A stretch of 32,000 nucleotides of DNA from Corynebacterium glutamicum ATCC 13032. GTDB lineage: Bacteria; Actinomycetota; Actinomycetes; Mycobacteriales; Mycobacteriaceae. This document shows, one piece after another, positions 3,686 to 24,146 of the stretch (position 1 is its first letter; each line of letters starts with the position of its first letter). The DNA lies in NCBI RefSeq assembly GCF_000011325.1, contig NC_003450.3, forward strand, positions 750,001 through 782,000. Reading direction: 5' to 3'. The translations under genes were made by a program, and so were the position numbers. Below the pieces are notes generated by a model. It ran no database searches and had not been told where the DNA came from. It saw nothing but the letters and a program-made list of their open reading frames with translations.

Positions 3686-3693
3686 AGTGATCC

Positions 3694-6600
3694 TTAAATT
3701 GCAGTTGGGATTATATTGTTGTTGTTTATTGCGCTGAGCACTTTCGCTTCGGCACTCACCAGGTCAAATCCTGTGAGACGAGGAATCAGCCGAGCAGCGT
3801 TTGCCCAATCGTGCCGTGAGTAATTGATCTGAGCGATCGGACGTATTACTTCATGAGCGATCATTCGGTTAAGCAAGCTGTAAATGAATGACACATATGG
3901 TGCATAAAGCCAGTTTTCAGCGTTGCCGCGACGGTGTTCCGACGCAAGAGTAGACAGCTCACGTGCAGTGACCTTGATGCGATCATCACCTAAGTGATCG
4001 ATGAGGTACTCGTATTTCTCGGCGAAATCGAAGAGCGTTGGGAGCTGGCCGAGATCATTGAGCTCTCGGCGGTTTTCCAACCATTCAAGCTGAGCTCGTA
4101 GGCGTGAGTCTGCTGAAATAAACTCGGCGCTGAACTGATCGGCGCCCAGCCCATTGCGCATAGCTTCCAAGCCTGAATTACGAATCACATTAATCTCAGT
4201 GGCTTGTGGTGCGCATTTTTGAGCAAGAGACAATCCCTCTGAATTTCCTTTTAGGATATTCCACAATTCACTGCCTCCTATCTCACGGATGTAGCTCTGC
4301 GAATTTCGGCGTTCGATGGCTCGTTCTTCTGTTTCATAGCCTTGTATCTGCAGAATTCTGAGGTCGTTCATTTCCTGGATCAGGCCGATCCAGGGAACGC
4401 GATGGATATCTCCGGCTGTGTCGTCAACTTCGAAAGAAAGCTCAGCTAATCCGGATCGGATGAATGATTCAAAGTGGGAATTAGACGGAATTGAGCTCTT
4501 ATCCAATTCATCTAATGCCACCCGAGGATCACTGGTGAGATAGGTACTGGTGGCATCGTCAAAATCTTGAATCGATTTCACATGAAGGTTTTCACGCTGC
4601 GCTAAGACATGGCGCATATTGAATCGGGCGTCCCACACTGTGCGGATTTCTTGTGGGAGTAAGACCTTCCCACTTCGTGGAGCGAACATCCATCGGTGTG
4701 TGAGGAAAGGATCAAATTGAGGGTCCAATTCAAATGAGGGATCATTTGCAACCACGGCTTTAACTGAGGGAACTTTTGGCTGCCATTGGGAGAGAAACTC
4801 TTTTTCTCTCACTTCCACGATTAAAGGGCCAACGACGAAGTGGGTGTCTGGAAGTGAGCCTGAGGTTCCTTGGAAATCGACTTTGATTGGTGGATCAAGC
4901 GGGTTGAGCGCAGACCATGCCCAGCCTTCCAGTCTCTTAGAAGTGTGCCGACCAAGTTCCAACTCCACGGTAGAAAGCTTAATTTCAGCCGCAGCTAGTA
5001 GGGGCTTTTTCTCAATTGTTGCAATGTGGGAACTTGCTTGAGGTTGAGGACGAGCACTCTTAAGCGCTGCATTGGAGATTTTTCCAGTTCGCTTAGCTTC
5101 GCTAATGATCTTCTCTCGGTGCTGGTCTTTACTTTCAGCGAACCACTCCGCGATCAAAAGGAATTGGGCATCATCATCCATGAGTTCCTTGATGCGATCC
5201 ATAGGGATAGACCACACTTTGCTTGAACCAATTTTGCTTAAGTATTTAGGCTCACTGGACTCAGGTTTCTTGTATGCCACCATTTTAATGATTTTCAAGT
5301 TTGGATCATAGACTTCATTAGGGAATCTGATCTGGAGGTTTCCATCGGCAAAGTCATTGAAATCTAGTGTCGTCTTTGTGCTTTCCCACTTTGTTTGGCT
5401 GTGTGTGACAGGTACTTGGTAGTGAAGTTGCGGAGGCGTGATGAAAACGTCGAGGTTGTAGTCCTCAGGGAAATCACCGCTTGCGATGTTAAACGCTTTT
5501 TGAGAGGTGAATGCATCAAGCCCGATGATCTCATCTGGGAACCTGATGTGCTTTTCAGAATTGGAACTAAAACGGGCGAAAGTCTTTGTTAAGCCAGTTT
5601 GTCCCTGATTGATGCTGGGGTACCTAAATCGATTTTCAGGTCCGCCTCCGCTGAATGTTAGGGAAAGATCGAGGCCTTCCGCGAGATTGAATTTGCGGGT
5701 TTCATAGACTTTTTCATCCTTGAGCAGAGTTACTAAAAATTGCCCGACCCAAGGGTCGTCGGATTCTTCGAAGAGGTCTAGTTCGTATCCGAAGTTTTCA
5801 GGTTCGACTGGGTAATCTTCCATTTCGATGAGGCTGCCATCTGGAAGAATCTGTGAATACTGAATTACCCAGTTTGATCCAGAGGTGGGGAATTCGATGC
5901 GGGGACTCGTGTGGAAAACGGGCTCATGATCGAGACCTTGAAGATTCTCGATCGTGAGATCCTCAGTAATCCATTGAACATCAACTTTGCGTCGAACTGG
6001 GAGTTCTTTTCTGAAGCCACCGTGGGAGACTGTGATCGATTCAGCTCGTTTGAGTGGGATCGAACGAATGACCCACTTGTTCCATCCGGACAAGGGACCC
6101 AAGTCTTGATAGTTGAAAGTCTTGGAAGCTCGCATACGTGCACGAATGATTGCTGCAGCTGGGACTATAGCTGTGACAGCGTTGCCACTGAGCATTTCTT
6201 GGTTTGCATATGGCTGACCGTTGTTCTTAAAGAACATAATGGGATTCTTGTGGCCAAATCCTTCAATCAGAATTAGGGATTTCTCTGTTGGAGTGATGAC
6301 TCTCAAGCTGGAGAGCGGTTTGTCTAAAGGCAAACGGTATTCGGCGAAACCTCCGTAGGACCAGTCCTGTTCGGGACGAACTTTAATGGAGTTTCCGTCA
6401 TAAATCACTGTCCATTCTGGTGCTGGAATCTGAAGTGCTGCAGTTTTAGAGATCGCTGGGAAAACAAGACTGAGTTCAAAACTCTGTGGATCCAGATAGA
6501 GATGCGGAGGTTCCAGGTTTTCCAGGCTTGCTGGTGCTGCTTTCGTCTTTTCGGCAATTTGTTCAGCTTCGCCGCTCAGACACTCCAGAAGAAATTTGAA

Positions 6601-7395
6601 AGACAATTCCGGCAGCCCATGAGTACCTACGAAGGCTTCTACTTCATTGAGGTCTTTGAGGTCGCGGTACCAATTGGTTAGTTCATAGACTCTGGCGATG
6701 AAGTCGACGGAACGCGCAGGGATGTGGGTGACTAATTGCTTGAGCGACTCCGTGGTTAATAGGTTGTCCCCGGAGGAGAAGACACTCTTCGCATATGATG
6801 CAAAGTCCTCACCAGAATCCCATCCTTGGTTTTCTGCTCGAGTGTGATCGATAAATTTGACCAAGGCGAGCATGTCTTTTGCAGAAAGGCCACTGTGAAG
6901 TTGGATGAGTCCGACATATTCGCGTCGATTGAGGTCAGCGAGAGAAAAAGTTTCTAGGCCATTTTTGCGGATGCTATTAACTAGTTCTTTACGGATCGCG
7001 TCGTATACATGCTCTGGAACTGACACCTGAGTGCGTTTCCAGAACGCAGGCCAGAAACCTTCTTGAGCATCGAGCATGGCGGTTCCAGAAAGCGCTGCCA
7101 GGAAGACGAGTGGATATTCTATAAACAGATCTTTAAGAATCGCTGGCTTGGATTGATTTCCGCCAACTGCTTCCACCAAGATTGCAATGATCGTTTCGTA
7201 TTCTTCAACGGTCAGCTGAAAATCCAGCGCAAGGAGTGGGGTAGGGCGCGTGATTTTCTTTCCATCATTGCCAATACCACTGATGCGAGCTTGCAATTTG
7301 GCGTTTGTAAACCGCAGTTGATCATTGAGAGTTTTGAGATCTTGAAGATCGTCAGCGAAACTGCGCTCTTGTTTGAGTCGGCGAGAGATAGTCAC
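3694..7395 (-). CDS. Large hypothetical protein (1233 aa, GTG start) with no recognisable catalytic motif. Candidate DruH-like partner of the downstream helicase.
   Basis: A 3.7-kb uninterrupted ORF that ends 8 nt before the helicase start, so the two are probably translationally coupled. I found no Walker A, HKD, HNH or methyltransferase motif. It is AT-richer than the core genes. The DruH-like call rests only on size, lack of domains and position upstream of a DruE-like helicase. Confidence 0.8.
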   Translation of the reverse strand: MTISRRLKQERSFADDLQDLKTLNDQLRFTNAKLQARISGIGNDGKKITRPTPLLALDFQLTVEEYETIIAILVEAVGGNQSKPAILKDLFIEYPLVFLAALSGTAMLDAQEGFWPAFWKRTQVSVPEHVYDAIRKELVNSIRKNGLETFSLADLNRREYVGLIQLHSGLSAKDMLALVKFIDHTRAENQGWDSGEDFASYAKSVFSSGDNLLTTESLKQLVTHIPARSVDFIARVYELTNWYRDLKDLNEVEAFVGTHGLPELSFKFLLECLSGEAEQIAEKTKAAPASLENLEPPHLYLDPQSFELSLVFPAISKTAALQIPAPEWTVIYDGNSIKVRPEQDWSYGGFAEYRLPLDKPLSSLRVITPTEKSLILIEGFGHKNPIMFFKNNGQPYANQEMLSGNAVTAIVPAAAIIRARMRASKTFNYQDLGPLSGWNKWVIRSIPLKRAESITVSHGGFRKELPVRRKVDVQWITEDLTIENLQGLDHEPVFHTSPRIEFPTSGSNWVIQYSQILPDGSLIEMEDYPVEPENFGYELDLFEESDDPWVGQFLVTLLKDEKVYETRKFNLAEGLDLSLTFSGGGPENRFRYPSINQGQTGLTKTFARFSSNSEKHIRFPDEIIGLDAFTSQKAFNIASGDFPEDYNLDVFITPPQLHYQVPVTHSQTKWESTKTTLDFNDFADGNLQIRFPNEVYDPNLKIIKMVAYKKPESSEPKYLSKIGSSKVWSIPMDRIKELMDDDAQFLLIAEWFAESKDQHREKIISEAKRTGKISNAALKSARPQPQASSHIATIEKKPLLAAAEIKLSTVELELGRHTSKRLEGWAWSALNPLDPPIKVDFQGTSGSLPDTHFVVGPLIVEVREKEFLSQWQPKVPSVKAVVANDPSFELDPQFDPFLTHRWMFAPRSGKVLLPQEIRTVWDARFNMRHVLAQRENLHVKSIQDFDDATSTYLTSDPRVALDELDKSSIPSNSHFESFIRSGLAELSFEVDDTAGDIHRVPWIGLIQEMNDLRILQIQGYETEERAIERRNSQSYIREIGGSELWNILKGNSEGLSLAQKCAPQATEINVIRNSGLEAMRNGLGADQFSAEFISADSRLRAQLEWLENRRELNDLGQLPTLFDFAEKYEYLIDHLGDDRIKVTARELSTLASEHRRGNAENWLYAPYVSFIYSLLNRMIAHEVIRPIAQINYSRHDWANAARLIPRLTGFDLVSAEAKVLSAINNNNIIPTAI

Positions 7396-7626: not shown

Positions 7627-8280
7627 CTAGATACGGTGGGTTGTCTTCTCATTGGTTGCAATCTGGTTTAAACGCTCAATATCAGCCAGTCCGGTCACAA
7701 TTACTGCAGAGCCACCCACTGCGAGTGGTTCTAAAACCTGGTGATTGAAGGACTCGATATCTGACCAACCAGTTGCAAGAACTCTGGCGCCAACCGGAAC
7801 ATCAGAATGCTGGATGATTTCCGGCAATGTGCGGGTAGGCTGGAAGAATTGATCGCCATAAAAACGCACTGTGGGGCCAAAATCGATGGCACCATTAGGC
7901 AGTTCACCGCCACCTTCAACAACTCCACGACCAAAAGGATCCTCGCTGACAATCAGCACATCACTATGGCCCTTGTAGTGGGAAAATCTATCGAGGGAGG
8001 TAAAGATGGCATCTGCCTCGGGATCATCAAAAGAGACCTCAACACTAGTTGCTAAAGCGCCGAGCATAATCATTGCGGCCTGCCAGCTCACCGGCAAATC
8101 AATAGTGATGAGCGAGCCTTCCTCCAGATCCAATTCCTCAAGGAGCATATTGCCAACCTTGGACGCCCAGTTATCAAGAGTGATGGCGGAGAAATCCAAA
8201 CGCGCACCCGTGGACTCGTTATAAACAGTCAAACGAGGGGAGGCAGGATCAAGAGCAAGCAAGTGGGAGAGAAGTTCCAT
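7627..8280 (-). CDS. Small conserved actinobacterial protein, TIGR03089-like (resembles a truncated AMP-binding/acyl-CoA synthetase).
   Basis: 217-aa ORF with an ATG start. Segments such as SLITIDLPVSWQAAMIMLGALATSVEV and VLEPLAVGGSAVIV resemble the substrate-binding strands of adenylate-forming enzymes but lack the full catalytic core. The family name is recalled from memory, not searched. Confidence 0.6.
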   Translation of the reverse strand: MELLSHLLALDPASPRLTVYNESTGARLDFSAITLDNWASKVGNMLLEELDLEEGSLITIDLPVSWQAAMIMLGALATSVEVSFDDPEADAIFTSLDRFSHYKGHSDVLIVSEDPFGRGVVEGGGELPNGAIDFGPTVRFYGDQFFQPTRTLPEIIQHSDVPVGARVLATGWSDIESFNHQVLEPLAVGGSAVIVTGLADIERLNQIATNEKTTHRI

Positions 8281-8360: not shown

Positions 8361-10796
8361 TTAGCTATCCAATTCCTCTAAACGCTGCAGTAATTCCCTT
8401 AAGCGGCCTGACCTGAGCTCTTCGAGCAAATAGTCATCACCCATCATGGATGCGATATTAAAGTGTTGAGTGAGTACAGCAAGGATGTGCTCTGCGCTTA
8501 GTTGTTCAATCACATTTTGTTTGAGGAATTCTGGAACAGGTAGGCCCCCTAGGGCTGCTTGAGGATTCTCCGGGCTAAAGGCTGTCAGTTGTTCCTTGAG
8601 CTTTGAGAGGAGAGGAATAACCTCTGTATCCGCCCCCTCGAGATTCTCAGCTTCTTCTAACTGTGGGATGAATTTAGTCAAATCGGAATATTTCTTTTCT
8701 ACCTCTACCTCGAGTTCATCATCTCGGGGTTCTACATCATTTGCCAGTGGTCGAAGGGTGAAAACCAATGCTTCCTGCTCTAGCCCCAGTTGAGTAAAAA
8801 CTCTGCGGAGGAAGCCAATCTTTACACTCGTACTAGAGCCAGTGTCTACAAAAAGCCCGTGGTCAATTTCACGGAGACTGCTGTTACTGTTGTTTGAAGT
8901 TGCCAGGCAGATTTCTTCATTGGTCAAAGCTATGAGTTCCTGGCGGAAGGATTGGTTCAAGACTTTTAGAACGCTCTGGAGCATGTCTGCCCAGGACGTT
9001 ACCGTTTCCTTGTAGTCCTCATATTCAAAGGCGACAATTTCGCGTCCGCGGAAAGAAAGATCACTATCTAAGGATTCTGTAGGAAGCACAGCTTGTGGTG
9101 GCTGGAAGGTTTCTTTTGGAAGGGGCCAGTAGTCCAGCGCTGCTTGAGTGAGCAGCTCGGTTCGCTCAATTAGCTGTTCTTCAGACCAATGCTTCTGCTT
9201 TTTGATGAAATTATTGATGCGATAGGGGGATACCAAAAATCCATTTTCCATCGTCCGCTTGCGCTCATAGGAAGAATTTGAATAGGCGGAGTTGTAGCCG
9301 GTGATGGTGAGGTTACCAATTCTATTAATCCAAGTCTCATGAATTCGAGCATATTCAGGGCCGAGTTCAGCTCTCCACTGATCGTTTAGGCTACGTGGCA
9401 TGATGTGTTCAATGGAGAGAGATCCTTCATCCAGACTTGTTTGGATGTCACGAACATCATTGGAATCGGCATTTTCTAGACAATCAAATAAGTAACGCCT
9501 GTTTTCGTTATGAATATTCCAGAAATTTTTGGTTGCGAAGTTCTCACGGAATTCACTGTCGGAGGGAAAACGCCCGGAACCATCGCGACGTTTCAGAATG
9601 TAGGCCAGCAGTGAGCTATAACTTTGCCCTGGAGTCCAGAATTTCTTGATGTCGCTATAAGCAGTGGAGAAGATCTTGCTTAAGGCGTTACTAGCAACCC
9701 CGACTGCAAAACGGCGGAATAAATAGGATTCCAGAACTTTTAGAACTCCGAGGAAGTCTGATTCGGTGATGATGCCGTCTTTAGCATCTTTGAGAACAGG
9801 CAGCAGAAAAGGCAAAACCACATCGCCCATGACAGGGACAAAACGCTTAAGACACCTATCGGCAGCTATAAACCCAGTAGTGGCACCTAAGAGATCTCGG
9901 TACAGCTTCGCGTACTCGTACATATCGTCGAGGATGAATTCGACCGGGAGCTTGGAGTTACGGATGAATTTCTTGAATTCCTCATAAACATCTTGCTTTC
10001 TTGGGGTGCGCGCGGTTTTGAGAGTTAAGTACCAGCGAATGAAATTGTCGGTATCAAATTTCACGCAGACTTCAATGGGATTCCAACGCTGCTCATAGAG
10101 CTTTTCTTGGGTTTTGAGCTCCTGATCCATAAGAACCAAGTTGCGTACCTTATCAGCTTCACTGAGCTCTAATCCCGTGGAGTTGAGACTTTCAAAGATT
10201 CGCTGCGGATCATCAAATTCCTCAAGGTCAAGATACATGACCCTGAGTTTCTCGATAGCTTCCCATAGTTGAGCTGCGGTGAGATCGGTTGCCTTAAGGA
10301 CATTGCGGAAGTAGCGATAATTAGCAGTGAGGTTTGAGGACTCTATGAATTCAGATTCTGGGCCGAAGAGCTTTTGATAAGCCTCATTATCGTTTTTAAC
10401 TGGCTTGAGCTTGAACTTGAGGTTTCCCTCATTGCCGGATCGGAGGTAGTCATCCTCAATCAATGTGGCTAGATCAATGTTGTAGCCAGCATTAAACTCA
10501 CCTTCTTCAACTTCAGATGCGCGCAAGGAATGTACCAGCGCAAGCATGAACAAGCTGATTGTTGTAAGACGCTGCTGTCCATCGATGACAACCCAGGTCC
10601 AGCTGCCTTGAGGCTTACCAACCACAGCTCCAAAAAAATGTTGACGGTGGTTTTCTTTGACCACTTCGCTGAGGTCATCAAAGAGGCGTGAACATTGCTT
10701 TTCAGTCCAGTCGTAATTGCGTTGATAAACCGGGATTTCCAAGGTTCGGTGCTTGCCGTCATAAACCTTGGTTATTTTTTGAACGTCACCACGCAT
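8361..10796 (-). CDS. GmrSD-family protein: N-terminal DUF262 (ParB-like NTPase), central DUF1524 (His-Me/HNH-like nuclease), and a ~250-aa uncharacterised C-terminal extension. Putative type IV (modification-dependent) restriction enzyme.
   Basis: 811-aa ORF. The ATG at 10796 is preceded by AAGGGTG. Motifs: IPVYQRNYDW and VIDGQQRLTT (10561-10590), the DUF262 signature; SIEHIMPRSLNDQW...IGNLTITGYNSAYSN (~9340-9415), the DUF1524 signature. AT-rich relative to its neighbours. Confidence 0.85.
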   Translation of the reverse strand: MRGDVQKITKVYDGKHRTLEIPVYQRNYDWTEKQCSRLFDDLSEVVKENHRQHFFGAVVGKPQGSWTWVVIDGQQRLTTISLFMLALVHSLRASEVEEGEFNAGYNIDLATLIEDDYLRSGNEGNLKFKLKPVKNDNEAYQKLFGPESEFIESSNLTANYRYFRNVLKATDLTAAQLWEAIEKLRVMYLDLEEFDDPQRIFESLNSTGLELSEADKVRNLVLMDQELKTQEKLYEQRWNPIEVCVKFDTDNFIRWYLTLKTARTPRKQDVYEEFKKFIRNSKLPVEFILDDMYEYAKLYRDLLGATTGFIAADRCLKRFVPVMGDVVLPFLLPVLKDAKDGIITESDFLGVLKVLESYLFRRFAVGVASNALSKIFSTAYSDIKKFWTPGQSYSSLLAYILKRRDGSGRFPSDSEFRENFATKNFWNIHNENRRYLFDCLENADSNDVRDIQTSLDEGSLSIEHIMPRSLNDQWRAELGPEYARIHETWINRIGNLTITGYNSAYSNSSYERKRTMENGFLVSPYRINNFIKKQKHWSEEQLIERTELLTQAALDYWPLPKETFQPPQAVLPTESLDSDLSFRGREIVAFEYEDYKETVTSWADMLQSVLKVLNQSFRQELIALTNEEICLATSNNSNSSLREIDHGLFVDTGSSTSVKIGFLRRVFTQLGLEQEALVFTLRPLANDVEPRDDELEVEVEKKYSDLTKFIPQLEEAENLEGADTEVIPLLSKLKEQLTAFSPENPQAALGGLPVPEFLKQNVIEQLSAEHILAVLTQHFNIASMMGDDYLLEELRSGRLRELLQRLEELDS

Positions 10797-10902: not shown

Positions 10903-13203
10903 CTAAACCCGCGGCAGCAACTCCGAAGGCTCAGTATGCGTGGTGAGAACAAGGGCATCACGTGCACGAGAAGCTGCAACGTAGAGCAAGGAGCGTTCGC
11001 GCTGTTGGGCGTCGTTACGCTCGGCCTCGCCTAAACCTTGCATGGTGTATTGCAAAGGAATGAGGTCACGGCCCATTCCGATCAAGATGACATGGGTAAA
11101 CTCCATGCCTTTAGCTCCGTGCATTGTCATTACACTGACAGTTTCGTGGGCTGCAAGTTCGGCATTTTGCGTCTTGACGGCATCGATGCCCTGCTCAGAG
11201 AGCGCATTAACCACGCGGTTGATCAAAGGACGGGTGCGTGCCAAAATGCCGATGCGTACATCGGTGGTCCTGTCCTGCCACACCTTGATGAGCTCAGCGA
11301 TTGCTTCGAACTCGTCGGTCTCAGATTCAAATTGGTAGAGGTGTGGCTTGGGGCCCTTACGCGCTGAGCGATAGTGCTCAATTGTGTCCGTTTCGCCTTC
11401 GGCGTCGGTCCATTCACCGGTGAGCATGCCAAGTGCGTAACTGAGGTTTTCGGCGGTGGTGCGGTAGTTAAGGGTGAGTCGCTTAGACGCCCGACCGCGG
11501 GTGGAAATACCAAAACGGCTTAGCACATGATGTTGGCCGTAGATGCGCTGGTGTGAATCCTCAGCCAAGAAGATGTCATTGGGACCTTCGGCTACCGCAG
11601 CCCTGAGTAAGAGCCAATGTCCGGCGTGGAAGTCCTGGGCCTCGTCGATAAGCACATGGTCAAATAGCCGGCCCTGGCCGGCGGCGGCGCGCTGCTCCAG
11701 GATGTTTGCGGCGATGGAGGAAAGCGCTGGCCAGGACATCTTTCCTTCGCGCGCACAGGAAGTCATGAATTGCTGAATAATCGCCCACACTTTTTTGCGT
11801 TGTACGCGGTTTAGTGGGGTACCACGGCCGGGACGAGGTGCACGCAGATAGTCCTTTTCTTGGGTGATTCCGCGGGCTAGGATTACGGTTTCAAACTCTT
11901 GGGCGAGGAATTCAGTATTGCTGATTTCTTCTGATAGATCGCCGGGATCTGCGGAAATGATCGCGTCGATCCAAAATTCTTGTTCGCCGTTGCCGATGAA
12001 TGGGGTGATTCTGCCGGCTGCACGCCCCAAGATAGCAGTGGTTGCTGCCTCACGTTCGGCGGTGTTTGCTAGCGCAACCACCTTATTTGCCAAGGCATCA
12101 ATTCCGCTGATCCACAAGCCAGGACTACCGGGTTTTTCTGCCTCGGGGAAAGTGGGATTAAGCGCGTTCATGGAGGATTTCAACGCATCGGCCAAACCGC
12201 GGGTATAGGTGGTGAGCAGGACTCGAGGCGTCTTATCGTCGGTCTCAAGGTGTCCATCAGAAGTGACCAGGCGGTTGGCACGGTGGACTACCACCACGGT
12301 TTTGCCGGTGCCAGCTCCACCAAAAACGCGACCCGATCCGCTGAAGTTGCGGGTGACTAAGGAGCGCTGGCTGGGGTCGATATACACGCGCCAGCTATCA
12401 AAACCTTCAGTTTCAATAACGCGGCGCAGGTCATTGCTATTTGGGGTATCCAAATAGGCAAAGTCCATTTGCGCTGCTGGGGTTTTAAGCCCAGCAATGA
12501 GCCTGGTATCTTCGCTGCGGGTATCCGGCTCTGTGGAAGGTGCGGGGATAGCGAGCGATTCGCGGATATCTTCAATGCTCAAACCGGCGACAAGGCCGAT
12601 AAGTGCGTCTTTTTCCCACGTCGGGCTGCTAGGAAGCGCTGCTGCGATGTCATCCTCTGAGGCAAGTTCCAACACAATACGGGTGGCAGCCGGGTCAATG
12701 CCGAGCTCGGCTTCCAGGACTTCTGGGGTGTGCCCTGCATGTGCGAGCGCCTCACCAGGGCTGGGCAGCTCCACTGGGGTGGGTACTTCGACGGCGTCCC
12801 GGAGTTGCTCCTCCGCCCGCTTTGCGGCCTCTTCCGCTTTGCGACGAGATTCCTGATCGTCTTTTTGCGCAGGAACGGTAGTTTCCTCGATGAGTCGAGT
12901 AATGCCGTTAACAGAGTTGACTTCAAGGCGGATTTTTCCTGCCTTGGTGATGGCATCATCATGGGGATAAACACCAACCACTACAAAGTGATGATCAAAT
13001 TCGTCGTGAAGCTCAAAAAGCACTGCGCGGAATTGATCATTGACCCGACCTGTGCGGACGCGGGAGTCGATGCTGTTTTTGATGGGCTCAATATGAAGCC
13101 CCGGGGAAGCTGGATTGGTGGCTAGTTTATTGAGGAAATCGAGGGTGAGTTTTTTGAGGCTGCCGTCGATATCTAGTGCGCCGTGCACGCTATAAGAAAC
13201 CAT
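10903..13203 (-). CDS. UvrD/Rep-like SF1 helicase (766 aa) with a ~100-aa N-terminal RelE/ParE-toxin-like domain and an acidic/proline-rich linker.
   Basis: Walker A RVFGGAGTGKT (~12298-12330), motif II VLIDEAQDF (~11630-11656), and C-terminal MTMHGAKGMEF and LLYVAASRARDALVL (UvrD_C-type). N-terminal residues ~35-85 read HIEPIK..RVRTGRVNDQFRAVLFEL..HHFVVVGVYPHDDA, which matches the RelE/ParE pattern (R-x-G-D-Y-R-hydrophobic run, then a hydrophobic strand, then H/R-x-x-A/Y). It starts 30 nt after the stop of the 2100-aa gene. Confidence 0.8.
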   Translation of the reverse strand: MVSYSVHGALDIDGSLKKLTLDFLNKLATNPASPGLHIEPIKNSIDSRVRTGRVNDQFRAVLFELHDEFDHHFVVVGVYPHDDAITKAGKIRLEVNSVNGITRLIEETTVPAQKDDQESRRKAEEAAKRAEEQLRDAVEVPTPVELPSPGEALAHAGHTPEVLEAELGIDPAATRIVLELASEDDIAAALPSSPTWEKDALIGLVAGLSIEDIRESLAIPAPSTEPDTRSEDTRLIAGLKTPAAQMDFAYLDTPNSNDLRRVIETEGFDSWRVYIDPSQRSLVTRNFSGSGRVFGGAGTGKTVVVVHRANRLVTSDGHLETDDKTPRVLLTTYTRGLADALKSSMNALNPTFPEAEKPGSPGLWISGIDALANKVVALANTAEREAATTAILGRAAGRITPFIGNGEQEFWIDAIISADPGDLSEEISNTEFLAQEFETVILARGITQEKDYLRAPRPGRGTPLNRVQRKKVWAIIQQFMTSCAREGKMSWPALSSIAANILEQRAAAGQGRLFDHVLIDEAQDFHAGHWLLLRAAVAEGPNDIFLAEDSHQRIYGQHHVLSRFGISTRGRASKRLTLNYRTTAENLSYALGMLTGEWTDAEGETDTIEHYRSARKGPKPHLYQFESETDEFEAIAELIKVWQDRTTDVRIGILARTRPLINRVVNALSEQGIDAVKTQNAELAAHETVSVMTMHGAKGMEFTHVILIGMGRDLIPLQYTMQGLGEAERNDAQQRERSLLYVAASRARDALVLTTHTEPSELLPRV

Positions 13204-13233
13204 GATTTTTATCTTTCATAAACTTTGGGTGTA

Positions 13234-16200
13234 CTAGGGACGAAGGGCAGCGGGAATATCGGAGGTCTCGAGGTCATTTGCAAAAAGCAGCGTCCAACCT
13301 TCAGCTTTGAGATCATCCTCCAAAGGCTCATCGGGATCAGATTCATAGAGCAAAGCGATCTTGACACTCGGCCACGTAGCAATCGTAGGAATACTCGAGA
13401 GCTCATCACCGGTGGTCTCTGGAACCAGGGCATGTTCCTTAGCCAAGATCTGCAAAGCGCCTTCGGCTTCTTCATCTTCATCGGCGGTAAAGCCATCCAA
13501 GATGGGAGCCCACAATTCAGGAACTTCAACAGCAAGCGGAGCTGCTGGAGCAGGCACAATATCAATTTTATGCGGTGAACCATTAGTGCTTACGTCTACG
13601 GATTCCGGTGCCAGCCACATGAGGTTGGCCAAATTGAGGAAGGCAGTCCAGGTATCCACTTCCAGCTCTTCTGGAGTGGTGGGAGCAAGCCACAATTGGC
13701 GGGCGCGCAGTTCCCGATTAACCATGGTGGCCCGCAAGGAAATCTTATTGCGGAAGGTACCAACAATTCCGTCGCCATTTTTTTGTGGATTATGCCCAAG
13801 CATGTGAGCAGCAGCGATATGAGCAAACTCCTTCCACGAGGATGCCGCGGGATTATCTAAAAATGCCAAGAGTTGATCCATAGGCGTTGCTGCCAGGAGT
13901 GCAGTTGATTGTGGATCAAGAATCAAATTTGCTTTGCTGAGCTGCCTGCCGATGGGGCTAAACCATGCTGGTTCCTCACCTTGTGCAGCGGGATTACTAA
14001 AGCGGTCGAGGTCTAAGCTAGTGATATTCCACGGCAAAATATTGTCTGGATCGAGCGCTAGTTTCATCCGTTTCTGAATATCGCCATCAAGACGGTAGTT
14101 AGCTGAAGAGATATGGAACGCAGCGCCATCGGTAAAAACAGCCACGGTGGGATAGTTGCCGTTGAGCGGTTCAAACCAGAAATCAGGGCGTGTATATCCA
14201 CGATCAACTTGTTCGCTCATCCGCCAGCGCACACCGGAGCTCATCTCAATATCCACATAAGAGTTTGAGCCGTTGACGCGGTCCACAAGTTTGGCATGGC
14301 GATTTTTTAAGGCGCGTCGCAGCATCACGCGGAAACGCAGTTCCAACTGAGAGCCAAGAGTGTTCTCTGGGCGCTTTTCCAAGAAAGTCCAGTCCGGTAC
14401 TGCAGAAAGGTCAGTGATTTCTTCGGGGCGCGAGCTATTGAGCAAAATTGCGCGCAAGGCTTTTTCTGCAGCTGCGCGGGAAGTCTGGAGGAGCGTGGCA
14501 GTGCGGGTATAAGGCAACAAACATTCTGGGCAGGCCAGCCTTTCATCATACTGGCATTGGCACCTAGACACCCGCTCCCAAGCTCGGGAAATAAGTTCAC
14601 GAACCTTTGTAGGATCGGCAAATTGGTTAAGATAACCCGTGCCTCCTGGAACCTGATCGTGCAGCAAAAGGGCATCAAGTGCACCATCGCCAGAAGTACG
14701 GGGGACCTGCACACTGGTGACATCCAGGTGGTCAGGATCGCCACCCAACACCTCACGAAATCCTAATTTGATAGCAGCAATGAGGCTGGTTACCACCATA
14801 GAATCGGCTTCACTGCCAAAATATTCGGGCAGCAGCATGAGCACGCCTTGGGTTTTAAGAGTACGACCCAAAGCGAAAGATACGGTATCTTCTTTTTGCT
14901 CATAACGGTGTGGGCACCAGGGTCGGTGATCCCAGCGTGAGTTAGCTCCTGCCTCGGAATCTAAATGTCCACAGTGGCGGCACACATTAAATAGTGGGCT
15001 GGTGACTTCAAAGCCACCGAGCCGACGCTTTTGGCCATTGCCAATTCCTAAGTTCAGCCAGCGTAATTCCACCTTGGGCAGATGCTCAATGCCAAAACCA
15101 TCATTCAAATACCAGGATTTTCCATGGCCATCTGGTGGAACGACAAAGCTGACGTGCTGGTTAAAGCGGGTGCTAAAGCGATCTTCACGGTCATCGCTAA
15201 TGGCAGCGCGAGTTTTCTCCACTGCGGAGGAAACCTTACGCATTTGCACTACCTCTAGGATTTGTCCCTTATCGGCAAAGGCGGGGGAGCCACAGGTAGG
15301 ACACGATCCCGGTGTAGAGACACCCGGCTGGAGGATTTCGGAGTGCGAGCACACGGGGCACAACCGCCATTGCTCAATGGCAGAGCCATGTTCACCAATC
15401 TCAATGGAATCAACTTTGGCAGCAATTCCTTGGGCATAAAAGGTCGCACCGGGAGCGAGCTCAAAAAGCGCTGCAGAGATCCCACGCGAGTAGGCATGAT
15501 TCTTGGTATCAAATTCCACTTCCTGGGGGTTGAACGAAGTAACCGCCACATTAAGTTCTACGGAATCATCAACCAGGGTGAAGTTGGGCAGGAGACCATA
15601 ACGCTCCAAAGCAGCGATCCAGAATTCACCAAGTAGATCACGGATTTGAAGTTTGACGGCTTTAAGGGAAGCTGCGGTTTTACGTTTTTCTTCCTTTAGC
15701 TCTTCATCATGTGCATCATTGCGCGCATCTAGTTTGTCAAAGATTTTTTCGAGTTCTCCCCGCCGCGCGGTAAGGCTGCGGCGTTCTTCCATCCACTCTT
15801 TTTGGGAGGTTTCCAGCAGCGCGAGGAGGGAGTCTGTGCTATTTCCAGATGCCCAAGTGCGCAGTTCGAAAATATTATCAATGCTGATTTGCATGTTGAG
15901 GGTGCGTACAAATTCCTCCAGCAAAGGATCTAGGCCTGCGTGAATCTGCGCTTTGAGTAATGCAACCAAAGGTGTTTTTCCGGCGGCATTATCAAAAACA
16001 TCAATTGCTGTTTCGAGTTTTGGCAGTTCGGCGCGAGTATCTAAGCAGTCGATCACATATGCCAAGAATTGGCGGTGCAAGATTTCACTGGCGGAAAGAT
16101 ACGCAACTGGTGGGGTAATAGCTCCCTTGATCATGGAGAGCGGTTGGTTAAGACGAGGCAATGTGACACCGCGGCCACGCACCACGGCGAGTACCAACGA

Positions 16201-19200
16201 GTTTCCGCTGAGGCGCCCGGCACGACCAACACGCTGTACATAACTGGCCACTGATGTTGGCAAAGACGCAAGCATCACGGTGGAGAGATCGCCGATGTCA
16301 ATACCCATTTCCAGCGTTGGCGTAGCTACCAACACATTGGGCGCATCGGGGGATTGTTTGGCCGAGCCTTCTCCACCTCTAAAGGATTGTTCGAGTGCGA
16401 GGCGGTCTTTTTTCTTGAGCATGCTGGTGTGCTCGCGGGCAATGACAGTGCGCGGTTCAATTGCGGAATAAAGCCTGCGGTAGTAGTTGTCTTCTACTTC
16501 CTCGGTATGGAGAACGCCCCCACAACTAGGGCTAAAACACGGAGCGCCATCAAGAAGTTCACGCACATGATCAGTTACACCAGTTTGGGCATGGCACACG
16601 CTGCATTCCAGAACTTCGGGATGGTCTTCGCTAAAAATACGGATGCGTTCGGCCTCGAGGCAGTAGATTTTTCCGCCGCTGTCGGTAGATATTGAGGAGA
16701 GAATGCTGCGGTTGCTTAAAGCGTCGAAAAGCTTTGTGATGGCGGTGGCGGCATCGTGGGTGCTGATGCCAAGCACCTGCGAGGTCCAGGACGCATAACG
16801 TCCGCGCGGGCTACCAAGCGGGGTGGTGCCGGTGCTGGAACGCAGGGATCCGGAAAGTGCGGAACCTACACGTGGGAATTCAGGTGCACCACCGCGGACA
16901 AAACCGGGAATGCCCTCAGCGCGGGCTTGGCGGCGGTTAAGCATATAGGGGTTGCCATCGGTGCGCAGGTAGGCGCCAAACCACTCATGGTTGATGCCCC
17001 CGCGGGCGCGCAAAAGTTCCAGGGCACCTTGCACCCAGCGCAGTCGCAGGTTCTCATCCTCAATATCTAAGGTGGGAACTTCGATGGCATAAAGTGCTTC
17101 GGCAGCCGCGGACAATGCAACACCTTTGGGCAAATCCACAAAAGCACTCAAAGCGCCGGTCAGCGCAAGGGAACGGGGTAGATCAGCGCGTTGTCCAAAC
17201 TCGAGGGCGAGATCAAAACTTAAACGTTTATGCACATTGCGGGAGGCCTCACGGCGCTCAGCCTTGCTGGCATCGGGGTGCCAATAAGGTTTGTAAATAT
17301 CAAGATCGGTCAGGTCAGGGGGTAGGAGCTCATAACGGGTGCGCCCAGAGGTGGCGTTATCCATCAGCGCCCGGGAGATTGATGGCAAGGTGACTTCATT
17401 ATCACCCACTGCGCGCCGGGTATAGGTACGAAGGGCAAAAGCGCGGGAACGTGCTTGGACGTACCCGGCGCGGTGCGCGGCATCTTGCACGGAATCGGCA
17501 AAGACCAGCGTCTTTTTCTCAGCGCTATCCAAATCGGCCATACCAAAAAGATTGGAGAGTGAGACAGAGAGCAGGGTAGAGATTCCCGATCCGATATAAC
17601 GGATGGAATCAACATCACCACAGGAAGGGCAGGTCTGTTTGGCGGAGAGATCGTCTGCCTCAGGGCCAAAGTGGGTGAGCACTGCGATAGAAGAACCTGA
17701 TTGTTCTTCTTCTGGGCTGGGTTGGCGCGTGCTGAGTTCATTGCTGGCGCTATGGAACCACAGCACTGCTGAGGTGCCATCAACTCCTCGCGGCCCAGCA
17801 ACGCTGCGCCCCTGCTCAATGGCTGCGCGCTGCTCAGAGGTGGCGTCGAGAAGCGCTCTTTGTTTATGGGGTTGTTCAAAGGAGTTGAGGCGAATTTTTT
17901 GTTCTTCCAACACCGGGATATTGGTGCCTTGTTCCAGGCTGACCATCCAGCCGGAACGGCCACAACTGCGGCAATAACACGCCGGCAACCATTGTTGGGT
18001 ATTGGCATCTTCTGCCGGGCCATCATCGGACCAGCGAAACATGGATTGTTCATCCCCAACCCCCAGGGCGCGGTCAATGCGGGAGACCTCGCGCACCCAA
18101 AGATGCGTTTCGACGCCAGGTAGGCGCTTGGCACCCCAGGCGGCAACTTTGCCGTATTCCGCGCGCACAAATGCCATGGCAGCCAGTGCATGGCTGATAA
18201 ATTCCGCAGCTTTAACCTCACCTAAGATGCGGGCGGTAGCCCCCAATACCAGCTCCGGAAGGGCAGTGACCTCATCTTGATCACGCCTGCTAAGCGGGGT
18301 GGAATCAGCAGCATGCTGCAAAATCGCAGCAGTTAAATCATGAGCCGCATAAGCACTGATCGCTGCGTGCAGATCAGCCTCACACAGCCACACTTTCTCA
18401 CAAAAAACGCGGAAGCAGAGCTGTGCATAATCGTCCTCATGTTGAGCTGTGGCGATGGTATCTAAAACCACCTCAATATCTTCCACAGTGGGTAGCTCAC
18501 GGGGCTCGCTAACTGCTGGGGCACCAAAATTCTGGGCAATTTCTGCGCGCCATTGATCCAGCTCCAGGCGAGTTTCCCCGACGATGGCATCAGCTGGAAA
18601 ACGCTCACCAAAAATGGTGTAAGCAAAATCCAACATGGGGGAGCCGGAATCACCAGAACCCAAGGTTGCTGAGGTAGCCACTGGCGTAATAATGCCCAAT
18701 GGCCGGTGCATGGCACTATCATCCAAAAAATTAGCAGGCTGCTGGGATTTCAGCATGAGCCCCAAACGCCGCAACAACAACGCCACATCTGTACCTTGAG
18801 CACCGTCATAAGTGTGGAACTCATCAAGTACTAAATACTGCAAAGAGGTGGCGGATTTTTGCCACATTTCGCGGTCGACGCTGCGCAGCAAGAGCTGATC
18901 CAACATTTTGTAGTTGGTGAGCAAAATATCTGGGGGACTAACCCGCATGGCTTGGGGATCATTAATAAGCTCCCTTTCGCCCATCTGCGTGCGATTGCCC
19001 TTGGCTTCACCGGTATAAATACCGGCGGTAACACCTTTAAGTGCTGGGTTATTGTGAATGAGCCGCGCCAAACGATCTGCCTGGTCATTGGCCAAGGCGT
19101 TCATGGGATAAAGCAACAGCGCCTTGATGCCTTGTTGGCCACGTTTCCGCAGGCGCAGGGCATGATCCAGAATCGGGTAGAGGAAAGATTCCGTCTTACC

Positions 19201-19536
19201 GGAACCCGTTCCAGTTACCACCAAGGTGGGATCGGGGCGGCGATCTTTACCTCGGTTATCGAGGGAACTCAGCCGCTGAAACGCCGCTTTTTGATGGTGA
19301 TAGGGCACAAAGTTCTCAGGTAACCAACTCAGCACATTTTCCCATTCCTGTGCCTGAGCATAGGGCAAACGTGCACGCACATAAGGCCCGTGGAACATGC
19401 CGGAATCACCGTGGCCCAAGAACCGCTTGAGCTCGGTGGCCACTTGCTTATCCGCAAGGGAAAAACTGGTGGTCAAATATTCGGTGATGCCTTCTTGAAT
19501 GCTGCCAGCCGCATGGACAGGAATGAGTGAGGACAT
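13234..19536 (-). CDS. 2100-aa DEAD/DEAH helicase fused to a DUF1998/MrfA-type zinc domain (DrmA+DrmB-like or DruE-like), with a C-terminal Vsr/DUF559-like endonuclease-fold segment and an unknown tail.
   Basis: Helicase motifs: VVTGTGSGKTESF (~19195-19230), LLYPMNALANDQ, LVLDEFHTYDGAQG, VATSATLG, VFADSVQDAAHRAGY, VATPTLEMGIDIGDL, YVQRVGRAGR (16211-16234). Zinc ribbons CRSCG and CPSCG are inserted in the core. DUF1998-like part (~14509-15369): CPVCSH..CPTCGS, CRHCGH..WCPH, DQVPGGTGYLNQF (14620-14658), CQCQ..CPEC. Endonuclease-like part (~13990-14355): SQLELRF..RPDFWF (14173-14190)..VAVFTDGAAFH..DIQKR. Confidence 0.85.
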   Translation of the reverse strand: MSSLIPVHAAGSIQEGITEYLTTSFSLADKQVATELKRFLGHGDSGMFHGPYVRARLPYAQAQEWENVLSWLPENFVPYHHQKAAFQRLSSLDNRGKDRRPDPTLVVTGTGSGKTESFLYPILDHALRLRKRGQQGIKALLLYPMNALANDQADRLARLIHNNPALKGVTAGIYTGEAKGNRTQMGERELINDPQAMRVSPPDILLTNYKMLDQLLLRSVDREMWQKSATSLQYLVLDEFHTYDGAQGTDVALLLRRLGLMLKSQQPANFLDDSAMHRPLGIITPVATSATLGSGDSGSPMLDFAYTIFGERFPADAIVGETRLELDQWRAEIAQNFGAPAVSEPRELPTVEDIEVVLDTIATAQHEDDYAQLCFRVFCEKVWLCEADLHAAISAYAAHDLTAAILQHAADSTPLSRRDQDEVTALPELVLGATARILGEVKAAEFISHALAAMAFVRAEYGKVAAWGAKRLPGVETHLWVREVSRIDRALGVGDEQSMFRWSDDGPAEDANTQQWLPACYCRSCGRSGWMVSLEQGTNIPVLEEQKIRLNSFEQPHKQRALLDATSEQRAAIEQGRSVAGPRGVDGTSAVLWFHSASNELSTRQPSPEEEQSGSSIAVLTHFGPEADDLSAKQTCPSCGDVDSIRYIGSGISTLLSVSLSNLFGMADLDSAEKKTLVFADSVQDAAHRAGYVQARSRAFALRTYTRRAVGDNEVTLPSISRALMDNATSGRTRYELLPPDLTDLDIYKPYWHPDASKAERREASRNVHKRLSFDLALEFGQRADLPRSLALTGALSAFVDLPKGVALSAAAEALYAIEVPTLDIEDENLRLRWVQGALELLRARGGINHEWFGAYLRTDGNPYMLNRRQARAEGIPGFVRGGAPEFPRVGSALSGSLRSSTGTTPLGSPRGRYASWTSQVLGISTHDAATAITKLFDALSNRSILSSISTDSGGKIYCLEAERIRIFSEDHPEVLECSVCHAQTGVTDHVRELLDGAPCFSPSCGGVLHTEEVEDNYYRRLYSAIEPRTVIAREHTSMLKKKDRLALEQSFRGGEGSAKQSPDAPNVLVATPTLEMGIDIGDLSTVMLASLPTSVASYVQRVGRAGRLSGNSLVLAVVRGRGVTLPRLNQPLSMIKGAITPPVAYLSASEILHRQFLAYVIDCLDTRAELPKLETAIDVFDNAAGKTPLVALLKAQIHAGLDPLLEEFVRTLNMQISIDNIFELRTWASGNSTDSLLALLETSQKEWMEERRSLTARRGELEKIFDKLDARNDAHDEELKEEKRKTAASLKAVKLQIRDLLGEFWIAALERYGLLPNFTLVDDSVELNVAVTSFNPQEVEFDTKNHAYSRGISAALFELAPGATFYAQGIAAKVDSIEIGEHGSAIEQWRLCPVCSHSEILQPGVSTPGSCPTCGSPAFADKGQILEVVQMRKVSSAVEKTRAAISDDREDRFSTRFNQHVSFVVPPDGHGKSWYLNDGFGIEHLPKVELRWLNLGIGNGQKRRLGGFEVTSPLFNVCRHCGHLDSEAGANSRWDHRPWCPHRYEQKEDTVSFALGRTLKTQGVLMLLPEYFGSEADSMVVTSLIAAIKLGFREVLGGDPDHLDVTSVQVPRTSGDGALDALLLHDQVPGGTGYLNQFADPTKVRELISRAWERVSRCQCQYDERLACPECLLPYTRTATLLQTSRAAAEKALRAILLNSSRPEEITDLSAVPDWTFLEKRPENTLGSQLELRFRVMLRRALKNRHAKLVDRVNGSNSYVDIEMSSGVRWRMSEQVDRGYTRPDFWFEPLNGNYPTVAVFTDGAAFHISSANYRLDGDIQKRMKLALDPDNILPWNITSLDLDRFSNPAAQGEEPAWFSPIGRQLSKANLILDPQSTALLAATPMDQLLAFLDNPAASSWKEFAHIAAAHMLGHNPQKNGDGIVGTFRNKISLRATMVNRELRARQLWLAPTTPEELEVDTWTAFLNLANLMWLAPESVDVSTNGSPHKIDIVPAPAAPLAVEVPELWAPILDGFTADEDEEAEGALQILAKEHALVPETTGDELSSIPTIATWPSVKIALLYESDPDEPLEDDLKAEGWTLLFANDLETSDIPAALRP

Positions 19537-19543
19537 AAGCGCT

Positions 19544-24142: not shown

Positions 24143-24146
24143 TGTG

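Follow-up and report, generated by a model that had tools for sequence, protein, structure and literature searches.

Corynebacterium glutamicum ATCC 13032 carries, between positions 750,001 and 782,000 of contig NC_003450.3 (assembly GCF_000011325.1), a cluster of four genes, the last of which encodes a UvrD-type helicase fused to an N-terminal domain resembling toxins of the RelE/ParE superfamily. This stretch of 32,000 nucleotides is referred to below as the window, and all positions are counted from its first letter on the forward strand. In the initial annotation, made from the sequence alone, the gene was placed in a defence operon at the position of drmC in DISARM, and the fusion was not recognized as a component of any named system. 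The same fusion has, however, been described as ArmD, which the anti-phage system ARMADA type II encodes in its fourth gene (Bell et al. 2025, PMC12458937; bioRxiv 10.1101/2025.09.15.676423), and the gene analyzed here is almost certainly armD. The locus is thus an ordinary actinobacterial copy of a named system, for which the fusion, the operon, the abundance in Actinomycetota and the requirement for defence were already published in 2025. The cluster comprises the following genes:

24147..27035, minus strand: armA, encoding a 962-amino acid SNF2/RapA (BrxHII/DrmD-like) helicase (Pfam SNF2-rel_dom and Helicase_C)
19544..24142, minus strand: armB, encoding a 1532-amino acid PglX/Eco57I-like N6-adenine DNA methyltransferase (Pfam Eco57I, MmeI_Mtase and N6_Mtase)
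13234..19536, minus strand: armC, encoding a 2100-amino acid YprA-like DEAD/DEAH helicase with a DUF1998/MZB zinc-binding domain
10903..13203, minus strand: armD, an open reading frame (ORF) with an ATG start, encoding 766 amino acids with a RelE/YoeB-fold domain, a linker, a helical domain and a UvrD/GajB-like superfamily 1 (SF1) helicase

An ARMADA type II operon in Corynebacterium glutamicum

The genes armA-armB-armC-armD (10903..27035, minus strand) are co-directional and separated by gaps of 4, 7 and 30 nucleotides. The last gap is exact, the armC ORF ending, stop codon included, at 13234 and the armD ATG lying at 13203 on the same strand, as the initial annotation had it. Its remark that armD resembles the upstream helicase gene in base composition is borne out as well: the guanine-cytosine (GC) content is 0.55-0.56 across armD and 0.51-0.56 in armC, and falls to 0.46-0.48 from about 11000 downstream.

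The four proteins were compared by BLASTP with the system of Escherichia coli Sakai (NC_002695; locus ECs_5259-5264 retrieved, in which ECs_5261-5264 are ArmA-D). For each of them the corresponding E. coli Sakai protein is the strongest match by a wide margin, with 430 bits for ArmA, 635 bits for ArmB and 573 bits for ArmC; ArmD aligns with ECs_5264 at 28.7% identity over residues 12-763 against 21-701 (E=4e-76), N-terminal domain included. Profile libraries give a more scattered picture. In PADLOC, ArmA matches DrmD (306 bits) and BrxHII (201 bits), ArmB matches DrmMI (177 bits), ArmC has DruE3 as its best model (275 bits, against only 65 bits for DrmA), and ArmD matches GajB models (up to 100 bits) and NERD+UvrD models. 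Membership of the giant helicase in Druantia, which the DruE3 model might suggest, was considered and dropped, as ArmC scores 573 bits to E. coli ArmC but only 121 bits to E. coli DruE in BLASTP. By these comparisons ArmC is placed in the ARMADA clade of YprA-like helicases, and not in the Druantia or DISARM clade.

ARMADA type II has been defined by a strict gene order, ArmA (BrxHII/RapA-like), ArmB (PglX-like methyltransferase), ArmC (YprA-like and closest to DruE of Druantia) and ArmD, and Actinomycetota have been named among its main hosts (PMC12458937). As far as sequence can tell, every defining feature of the type is present at the C. glutamicum locus. All four proteins carry motifs that correspond to the positions at which E. 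coli mutants lost defence completely, and ArmD has the Walker B site as well: GLGKT143 and DEIH245 in ArmA, NPPW at residue 939 in ArmB, GSGKT111 and DEFH238 in ArmC, and K301 and D520 in ArmD, which correspond to E. coli ArmD K266 and D454, the residues mutated by Bell et al. ArmC (Pfam DEAD, Helicase_C and MZB, with MZB/DUF1998 at residues 1587-1673) also contains seven CxxC motifs. The GxG motif for S-adenosylmethionine binding (G605 in E. coli) was not located in ArmB of the window.

Experimental data on the system come from E. coli. In strain NCTC 12900 all four arm genes are needed and deletion of armD abolishes defence; the Walker A substitution K266A in ArmD abolishes protection, the Walker B substitution D454N weakens it, and RelE-domain mutants are absent from the mutants listed in the paper (PMC12458937). 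ARMADA II protects E. coli directly and non-abortively: membranes are not permeabilised, and metabolism does not shut down (PMC12458937). ArmD has also been studied in enterohaemorrhagic E. coli (preprint 10.1101/2025.09.22.677730), and anti-phage protection has been shown for the systems of E. coli NCTC 12900, ATCC 8739 and EDL933 only (PMC12458937; 10.1101/2025.09.22.677730).

Automatic tools tend to miss this context. PADLOC v2.0.0 labels the pieces as DrmD, REase_MTase_IIG, DruE and GajB, and homologues of ArmD are called ‘3'-5' exonuclease’ at NCBI; the annotation of the locus can be corrected. ArmB matches the PADLOC model PDLC03611 (REase_MTase_IIG) over positions 1-1532 of 1532 with 3743 bits, and the model appears to have been built from this ArmB or a near-identical protein. 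As a consequence, tools that draw on PADLOC v2 will report a type IIG restriction-modification enzyme in place of ArmB and overlook its ARMADA context. Beyond confirming an actinobacterial copy of the system, the present analysis adds linkage statistics for the gene, recognizes a conserved helical domain in ArmD and lists the residues of its N-terminal domain that merit mutation.

Conservation of the cluster in Actinomycetota

A scan of one genome per species, with 10-kb flanks, yielded 80 related loci across Actinomycetota, including Corynebacterium, Dietzia, Flaviflexus, Arthrobacter/Pseudarthrobacter, Cutibacterium, Tessaracoccus, Nesterenkonia, Actinobaculum and Nakamurella. At most loci ArmD is matched over almost its whole length, N-terminal domain included. 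In 68 of the 80 loci the ArmD homologue is immediately preceded by an ArmC homologue (less than 400 nucleotides away, often with a 4-bp overlap), and in three more an ArmC homologue is found upstream at a distance of 1.3-7.7 kb; ArmC is absent at three loci cut by a contig edge, three with an N-terminally truncated homologue, two Microbacterium loci with a different middle module and one orphan gene. ArmC is therefore kept upstream in 71 of 77 assessable loci. The armC stop and armD start overlap by 4 bp in E. coli, Haematobacter and many Corynebacterium loci, and a methyltransferase homologue precedes the helicase in 43 loci, that is, wherever the 10-kb flank reaches it. The flanks of the 80 loci stop short of ArmA, which was confirmed only in E. 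coli and on two annotated plasmids, of Tsukamurella and Haematobacter, where the full order of SNF2-like helicase, methylase, giant helicase and UvrD-like protein is found.

These counts bear out the proposal of the initial annotation that armD forms part of the same defence operon as the giant helicase. Occurrence at unrelated loci had been named beforehand as the finding that would speak against an association with defence genes; given the direct linkage in 68 of 80 loci, profiling of the neighbourhood shows instead that the fusion travels with the cluster.

Two other accounts of the gene were weighed. The locus could be a variant of DISARM class 1 with the RelE-UvrD gene in place of the phospholipase D (PLD) nuclease DrmC, a reading favoured by the DrmD and DrmMI matches of ArmA and ArmB (ArmA also scores 337 bits with NCBIfam DISARM_DrmD) and by the very definition of ARMADA as ‘DISARM-related’, with two genes, for the SNF2 protein and the methyltransferase, common to both (PMC12458937). 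The NCBIfam score nevertheless stays under its cutoff of 610, and the score with DISARM_DrmAL, whose cutoff is 999, is only 23.8 bits; the giant helicase, a YprA-like fusion in one polypeptide, is closer to DruE than to DrmA, and closest to E. coli ArmC; no PLD domain is present in any ORF of the cluster (Pfam), nor does any match a DrmC model (PADLOC); and the tree of the YprA family groups ARMADA with Druantia, not with DISARM (PMC12458937). Membership in DISARM was rejected on these grounds, the lack of a PLD DrmC, the lack of separate DrmA and DrmB and the scores below cutoff, and a variant of this kind is very improbable; what survives of the original drmC framing is the looser label ‘DISARM-related’. 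Still harder to credit is the notion that the RelE-UvrD gene acts on its own, as a single-gene or Gabija-like module for abortive infection, and only happens to adjoin the cluster. The match of the UvrD core to many GajB models, the existence of one orphan copy in Corynebacterium sputi and the 106-nucleotide gap with a drop in GC content between armD and the downstream GmrSD gene, which indicates that islands of this region are modular, are in its favour. It is contradicted by the retention of ArmC upstream of the gene, by the 4-bp overlaps between armC and armD, by the loss of ARMADA defence upon armD deletion in E. coli NCTC 12900 (PMC12458937) and by the Gabija check itself, in which the neighbouring ORFs scanned with Pfam and PADLOC yielded no GajA model and no OLD/TOPRIM nuclease domain. 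The assignment to ArmD of ARMADA type II is thus retained and, together with the explanation of the protein developed below, is regarded as highly probable.

Several loci depart from the common arrangement. On the Tsukamurella plasmid (NZ_LR134452.1, locus L081), a helicase-related and DUF1998 pair resembling DrmA/DrmB of DISARM (1..4997) precedes ARMADA II, ArmC is annotated as two coding sequences, and a second UvrD-helicase gene (18112..19905) follows the cluster, overlapping armD by 4 bp. In Corynebacterium meitnerae, C. pilbarense and C. stercoris (L001, L002 and L062), about 3 kb of unrelated small genes, including a GmrSD-like gene in C. pilbarense, separate ArmC from the 3' end of the ArmB homologue; in this clade the ‘strict gene order’ is broken, and position 39 of the N-terminal domain is Lys, not Glu. 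At the sister loci L004-L008, L011 and L012, ArmB is not visible within 3.6 kb upstream of ArmC. The orphan of C. sputi (L026, 9875..12142) is flanked by genes for a TetR regulator and for an acyl-CoA thioesterase, and neither ArmA nor ArmB nor ArmC is encoded within 10 kb of it; its match to ArmD does not begin until residue 40, and the gene may accordingly be a remnant in decay.

The two Microbacterium loci (L068, 1646..12178, and L075, 2..12175) encode an ArmD-like protein matched over residues 12-763, the RelE-like domain included, preceded by a PglX/Eco57I-like methyltransferase (1327-1577 amino acids) and a McrB-like AAA_5 ATPase (about 800 amino acids). At L068 a helicase gene also lies upstream and a gene for a 1896-amino acid Sacsin-domain protein follows; at L075 genes for McrC and a Mrr_N protein also precede the ArmD-like gene. 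A YprA-like ArmC is absent from both. These loci may represent an ARMADA-like variant with McrBC in place of ArmC, of which no description was found in the literature read.

Domain architecture of ArmD and the role of its RelE-like domain

The following parts of ArmD were delimited:

12889..13203, minus strand: residues 1-105, predicted RelE/ParE-superfamily (YoeB-like) fold domain (AlphaFold2 and Foldseek)
12769..12888, minus strand: residues 106-145, variable charged Ala/Pro-rich linker (29-sequence alignment)
12376..12768, minus strand: residues 146-276, conserved helical region (alignment and AlphaFold2)
10933..12375, minus strand: residues 277-757, SF1 UvrD-type helicase core (Pfam and motif scan)
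12298..12312, minus strand: Walker A motif, GTGKT298-302 (motif scan)
11632..11649, minus strand: Walker B motif, IDEAQD519-524 (motif scan)

Judging by its domains and motifs, ArmD is an SF1 ATPase/helicase of the UvrD/GajB type. Pfam identifies UvrD-helicase at residues 277-556 (E=1.8e-18) and UvrD_C at residues 682-757 (E=4.9e-22), and GGAGTGKT (residues 295-302) and LIDEAQDF (518-525) are in place; the SF1 core is an ordinary one, as had been stated from the sequence. The region in front of it is less simple than the acidic, proline-rich linker of about 180 residues proposed at first. In an alignment of 29 full-length homologues, where conservation is strong over residues 1-105, only some 40 residues (about 106-145) vary in length and sequence and are of low complexity, and the predicted local distance difference test score (pLDDT) of the model of the N-terminal domain drops past residue 105. 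The remainder of the proposed linker is a conserved helical domain, absent from the published description of ArmD, across which E. coli ArmD aligns too and in which G168, W196, G207, L217, D232, A244, L259, F268 and W271 are invariant among the 29 homologues. In an AlphaFold2 model of residues 146-292, the part from 146 to about 220 forms a bundle of six short helices with pLDDT of at least 94. Comparison of this model with the Protein Data Bank (PDB) by Foldseek gave nothing significant (best E=0.39, probability 0.21), and its profile matched no PDB sequence; the weak Foldseek matches, which include a scatter of XRE/HigA-type helix-turn-helix proteins (E at or above 0.39, probability at most 0.21), are non-significant and do not count as evidence.

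For residues 1-105, the predicted structure supports a RelE/ParE-superfamily fold, that is, an antiparallel beta-sheet with N-terminal helices packed on it. The AlphaFold2 model (28-sequence alignment; pLDDT 88.3, predicted template modelling score 0.80) begins with a short strand and a long helix at 14-29, continues with core strands at 49-53, 58-66 and 71-80 and a helix at 81-88, and ends with two extra strands at 91-95 and 102-106. RelE/ParE-superfamily toxins make up nearly all of the top 30 Foldseek matches in the PDB. The best is Staphylococcus aureus YoeB (7v6w; E=2.9e-4, template modelling (TM) score 0.66 over 86/89 residues), and others are an Agrobacterium tumefaciens YoeB/ParE toxin, HP0892/HP0894, YafQ, E. 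coli YoeB, ParE2 and HigB; TM scores to YoeB, YafQ, HP0892/4 and HigB are 0.55-0.68, the value for the best match being 0.66-0.68 when normalised to the target. Lower in the ranking is the RelE-type domain of Cami1 in its ribosome-bound structure (8phj; E=0.11, probability 0.84). Pfam has no match to residues 1-276 of ArmD at E of 10 or less, and in the HHpred analysis of E. coli ArmD the values were E=0.0085 to RelE3 and 6.1e-32 to GajB 8IUD (Table S2 of Bell et al., PMC12458937). The model and the Foldseek matches agree with the original suggestion that the first hundred or so residues are RelE/ParE-like.

A profile of the domain was searched against 1.84 billion representative proteins, which produced 1022 clusters at E of 1e-3 or less. 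In all but six of the best 150 of these 1022 matches the domain begins within about 45 residues of the N-terminus. Complete proteins that carry it have about 700-860 amino acids, and shorter matches spread continuously over 98-625 amino acids and for this reason look like gene fragments; a standalone toxin family of about 100 amino acids sharing the domain, considered as a candidate, was dropped accordingly. Conservation was assessed in 152 sequences, consisting of the best 150 of the 1022 cluster representatives (50% identity), E. coli ArmD and ArmD of the window. Conserved positions are D46 (150/152), R48 (136/152), R50 (150/152), R53 (151/152), R59 (151/152), H81 (149/151) and D82 (145/151); an alignment of 35 sequences, E. 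coli ArmD among them, also shows R53, R59 and H81 as invariant. The counterparts in E. coli ArmD are R62 for R53, R68 for R59, H89 for H81, D90 for D82 and E48 for E39. The catalytic residues of YoeB are Glu46, Arg65 and His83, and those of RelE are Lys52, Lys54, Arg61, Arg81 and Tyr87. A marginal alignment to S. aureus YoeB and the strand register of the model, as distinct from structural superposition, would put E39, R59 and H81 at the positions of the YoeB triad and R48, R50 and R53 at those of the basic strand residues of RelE, making them candidate active-site residues. The residues most worth mutating are R53, R59, H81, D82 and E39.

In the proposed mode of action, ArmB would mark host DNA by adenine methylation, and the SNF2-like ArmA together with ArmC, a YprA-like protein with zinc-binding and degenerate nuclease-like C-terminal domains, would engage invading unmodified DNA. 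ArmD, which may be coupled to ArmC both translationally and physically, would spend ATP on the nucleic-acid intermediates that ArmA and ArmC make. The RelE/YoeB fold, the near-invariant cluster of R48, R50, R53 and R59 and the His-Asp pair suggest that the N-terminal domain binds or cleaves RNA: the chances are about even that it binds RNA or the ribosome, and a little short of even that it is a catalytically active RNase. Because no antitoxin gene accompanies armD and defence in E. coli is non-abortive, such an activity would have to be restrained in cis, by the linker, the helical domain and the helicase, and to act locally, on phage transcripts or on the ribosomes translating them at the targeted DNA, and not as a cell-wide toxin.

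A number of observations weigh against this interpretation. At the level of sequence the link of the domain to toxin families is essentially undetectable: a Pfam comparison of 28 homologues of the domain at E of 10 or less returned only noise and no toxin model, hhalign of its profile with E. coli YoeB gave a probability of 0.3% and no meaningful alignment, and the S. aureus YoeB match of a narrow profile to PDB sequences, marginal in itself (E=0.7), disappeared with a broader 35-sequence profile, which matched nothing there. The superfamily assignment therefore rests on predicted structure, and the mapping of E39, R59 and H81 on that marginal alignment, on strand register and on the published catalytic residues. 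The putative general base E39, conserved in 134 of the 152 sequences, is replaced by Lys in 17, including a large Corynebacterium clade. No small ORF is found in the 30- and 106-nucleotide gaps flanking armD, and no small or antitoxin-like neighbour is conserved next to armD across the 80 related loci. A ribosome-dependent mRNase also fits poorly with non-abortive defence (PMC12458937); this applies to the mRNA interferase released on infection, which the initial annotation gave as an example of an effector, one of its three possible roles for the toxin fold beside sensor and docking module. Finally, the armD deletion mutant of EDL933 was less affected than other arm mutants (10.1101/2025.09.22.677730), so that ArmD may be accessory in that strain.

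Alternatively, the RelE-fold domain may be catalytically inert and serve, like ParE-type members that act through protein binding, for docking or recognition; its partner could be a subunit of ARMADA such as ArmC, a phage protein or some nucleic-acid structure. The gene would remain ArmD and only the role of its domain would differ. The non-abortive character of the E. coli system, the missing antitoxin gene, the Lys variants at position 39 and the undetectable toxin-family signature are all in line with it. They are set against the (near-)invariance of R53, R59, H81 and D82 at the strand positions of the catalytic Arg and His of RelE/YoeB, a pattern of conservation that resembles an active or phosphate-binding site more than a protein-protein surface, and against the presence among the structural matches of Cami1, solved on the 70S ribosome, from which it follows that a RelE-type domain within a larger protein can reach the ribosome. 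On balance an inert module is possible, though we lean against it. An unlikely elaboration of the RNase reading is that the first 220 or so residues of ArmD derive from a toxin-antitoxin pair that was domesticated and fused in cis, the toxin coming first as in HigBA modules; its sole structural pointer is the non-significant scatter of XRE/HigA-type matches to the helical domain. A RelE/HigB-like RNase domain would then be masked by the charged helix and the small helical domain, and movement of the UvrD core, driven by ATP on phage DNA processed by ArmC, would unmask it, its cleavage being confined to nascent phage transcripts or to ribosomes engaged in their translation. Were this the case, a DNA-sensing system would possess an RNA-level, non-abortive arm, and ArmD, given the Microbacterium loci where McrBC takes the place of ArmC, would be a portable effector common to different sensors.

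Neighbouring genes and comparison with known systems

Outside the cluster, the window contains the following genes:

27155..28711, minus strand: LytR-CpsA-Psr (LCP) protein gene, cell-envelope housekeeping flank
28969..29913, plus strand: family-2 glycosyltransferase gene, cell-envelope housekeeping flank
30086..31174, plus strand: gene for a nucleotidyl transferase with a hexapeptide-repeat domain, cell-envelope housekeeping flank
8361..10796, minus strand: GmrSD (DUF262 + DUF1524) type IV restriction gene, directly after armD, GC content 0.46-0.48
7627..8280, minus strand: TIGR03089-family gene (213 bits; a conserved family of unknown function), between the GmrSD gene and the Druantia-like pair
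3694..7395, minus strand: ORF of 1233 amino acids, first gene of a probable Druantia type III pair
2..3685, minus strand: DruE-like ORF of at least 1228 amino acids that runs off the start of the window (PADLOC DruE3, 471 bits)

ARMADA begins 119 nucleotides after the LCP gene, on the same strand, and the 106-nucleotide gap downstream of armD contains a weak hairpin without a proper T-tract. The two ORFs at 3694..7395 and 2..3685 probably form a Druantia type III pair downstream of ARMADA, as far as their sequences indicate. The DruE-like ORF has DruE of E. coli Sakai as its best BLASTP match and starts 8 nucleotides past the stop of the 1233-amino acid ORF. The latter has no Pfam, PADLOC or NCBIfam match and no BLASTP similarity to E. 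coli DruH, and is 41% identical to the protein in the DruH position of locus L003. At loci L003, L036, L039, L051 and L061, from Corynebacterium sp. A21 and several Dietzia genomes, the gene next to that of the ArmD homologue encodes a protein of 1230-1547 amino acids (cluster 5), and the one after it a second YprA-like helicase (about 1550-1610 amino acids), so that ARMADA II and a Druantia III-like pair stand head to tail; at the Microbacterium locus L075, a pair of cluster 5 and YprA-like helicase is located on the opposite strand.

Set against known systems, the cluster shares with DISARM class 1 an SNF2-like helicase, a PglX-like methyltransferase and a DUF1998-containing helicase module, and differs from it in that the equivalents of DrmA and DrmB are fused (2100 amino acids), the helicase is of the Druantia/ARMADA type and a RelE-UvrD gene is added. 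GajB of Gabija and ArmD have in common a UvrD-type SF1 core with similar motifs; ArmD has an extra N-terminal extension of about 275 amino acids, no GajA partner and a place inside a methyltransferase-containing system. With the ribosome-dependent mRNA interferases YoeB, RelE, YafQ and HigB the N-terminal domain shares its predicted fold, Arg residues that are conserved on the central strands and, just past the last core strand, a His at the place of the catalytic His of YoeB. Unlike these type II toxins, it possesses two extra C-terminal strands (91-106) and a fused helicase of about 650 amino acids, lacks an antitoxin gene and detectable membership in their sequence families, and belongs to a non-abortive system. 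Cami1, a CARF-RelE accessory effector of type III CRISPR systems, likewise carries a RelE-type domain on a larger defence protein. Cami1 responds to cyclic oligoadenylate by arresting growth, whereas ArmD lacks a CARF domain and belongs to a system reported to be non-abortive.

The closest relative remains ArmD of E. coli. Both proteins are encoded by the last gene behind those for the SNF2-like protein, the methyltransferase and the YprA-like helicase, share the RelE-like domain, the helical region and the GajB-like UvrD core, can be aligned end to end and have identical Walker A and Walker B residues. The C. glutamicum protein is about 60 amino acids longer, mainly because of its longer charged linker, and only 29% identical to the E. 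coli one, its gene is followed by a GmrSD gene, and its function is a predicted one. The neighbourhoods correspond too: co-location of ARMADA II and Druantia III has been reported in E. coli, and the actinobacterial arrangement of ARMADA II with a probable Druantia III pair mirrors it.

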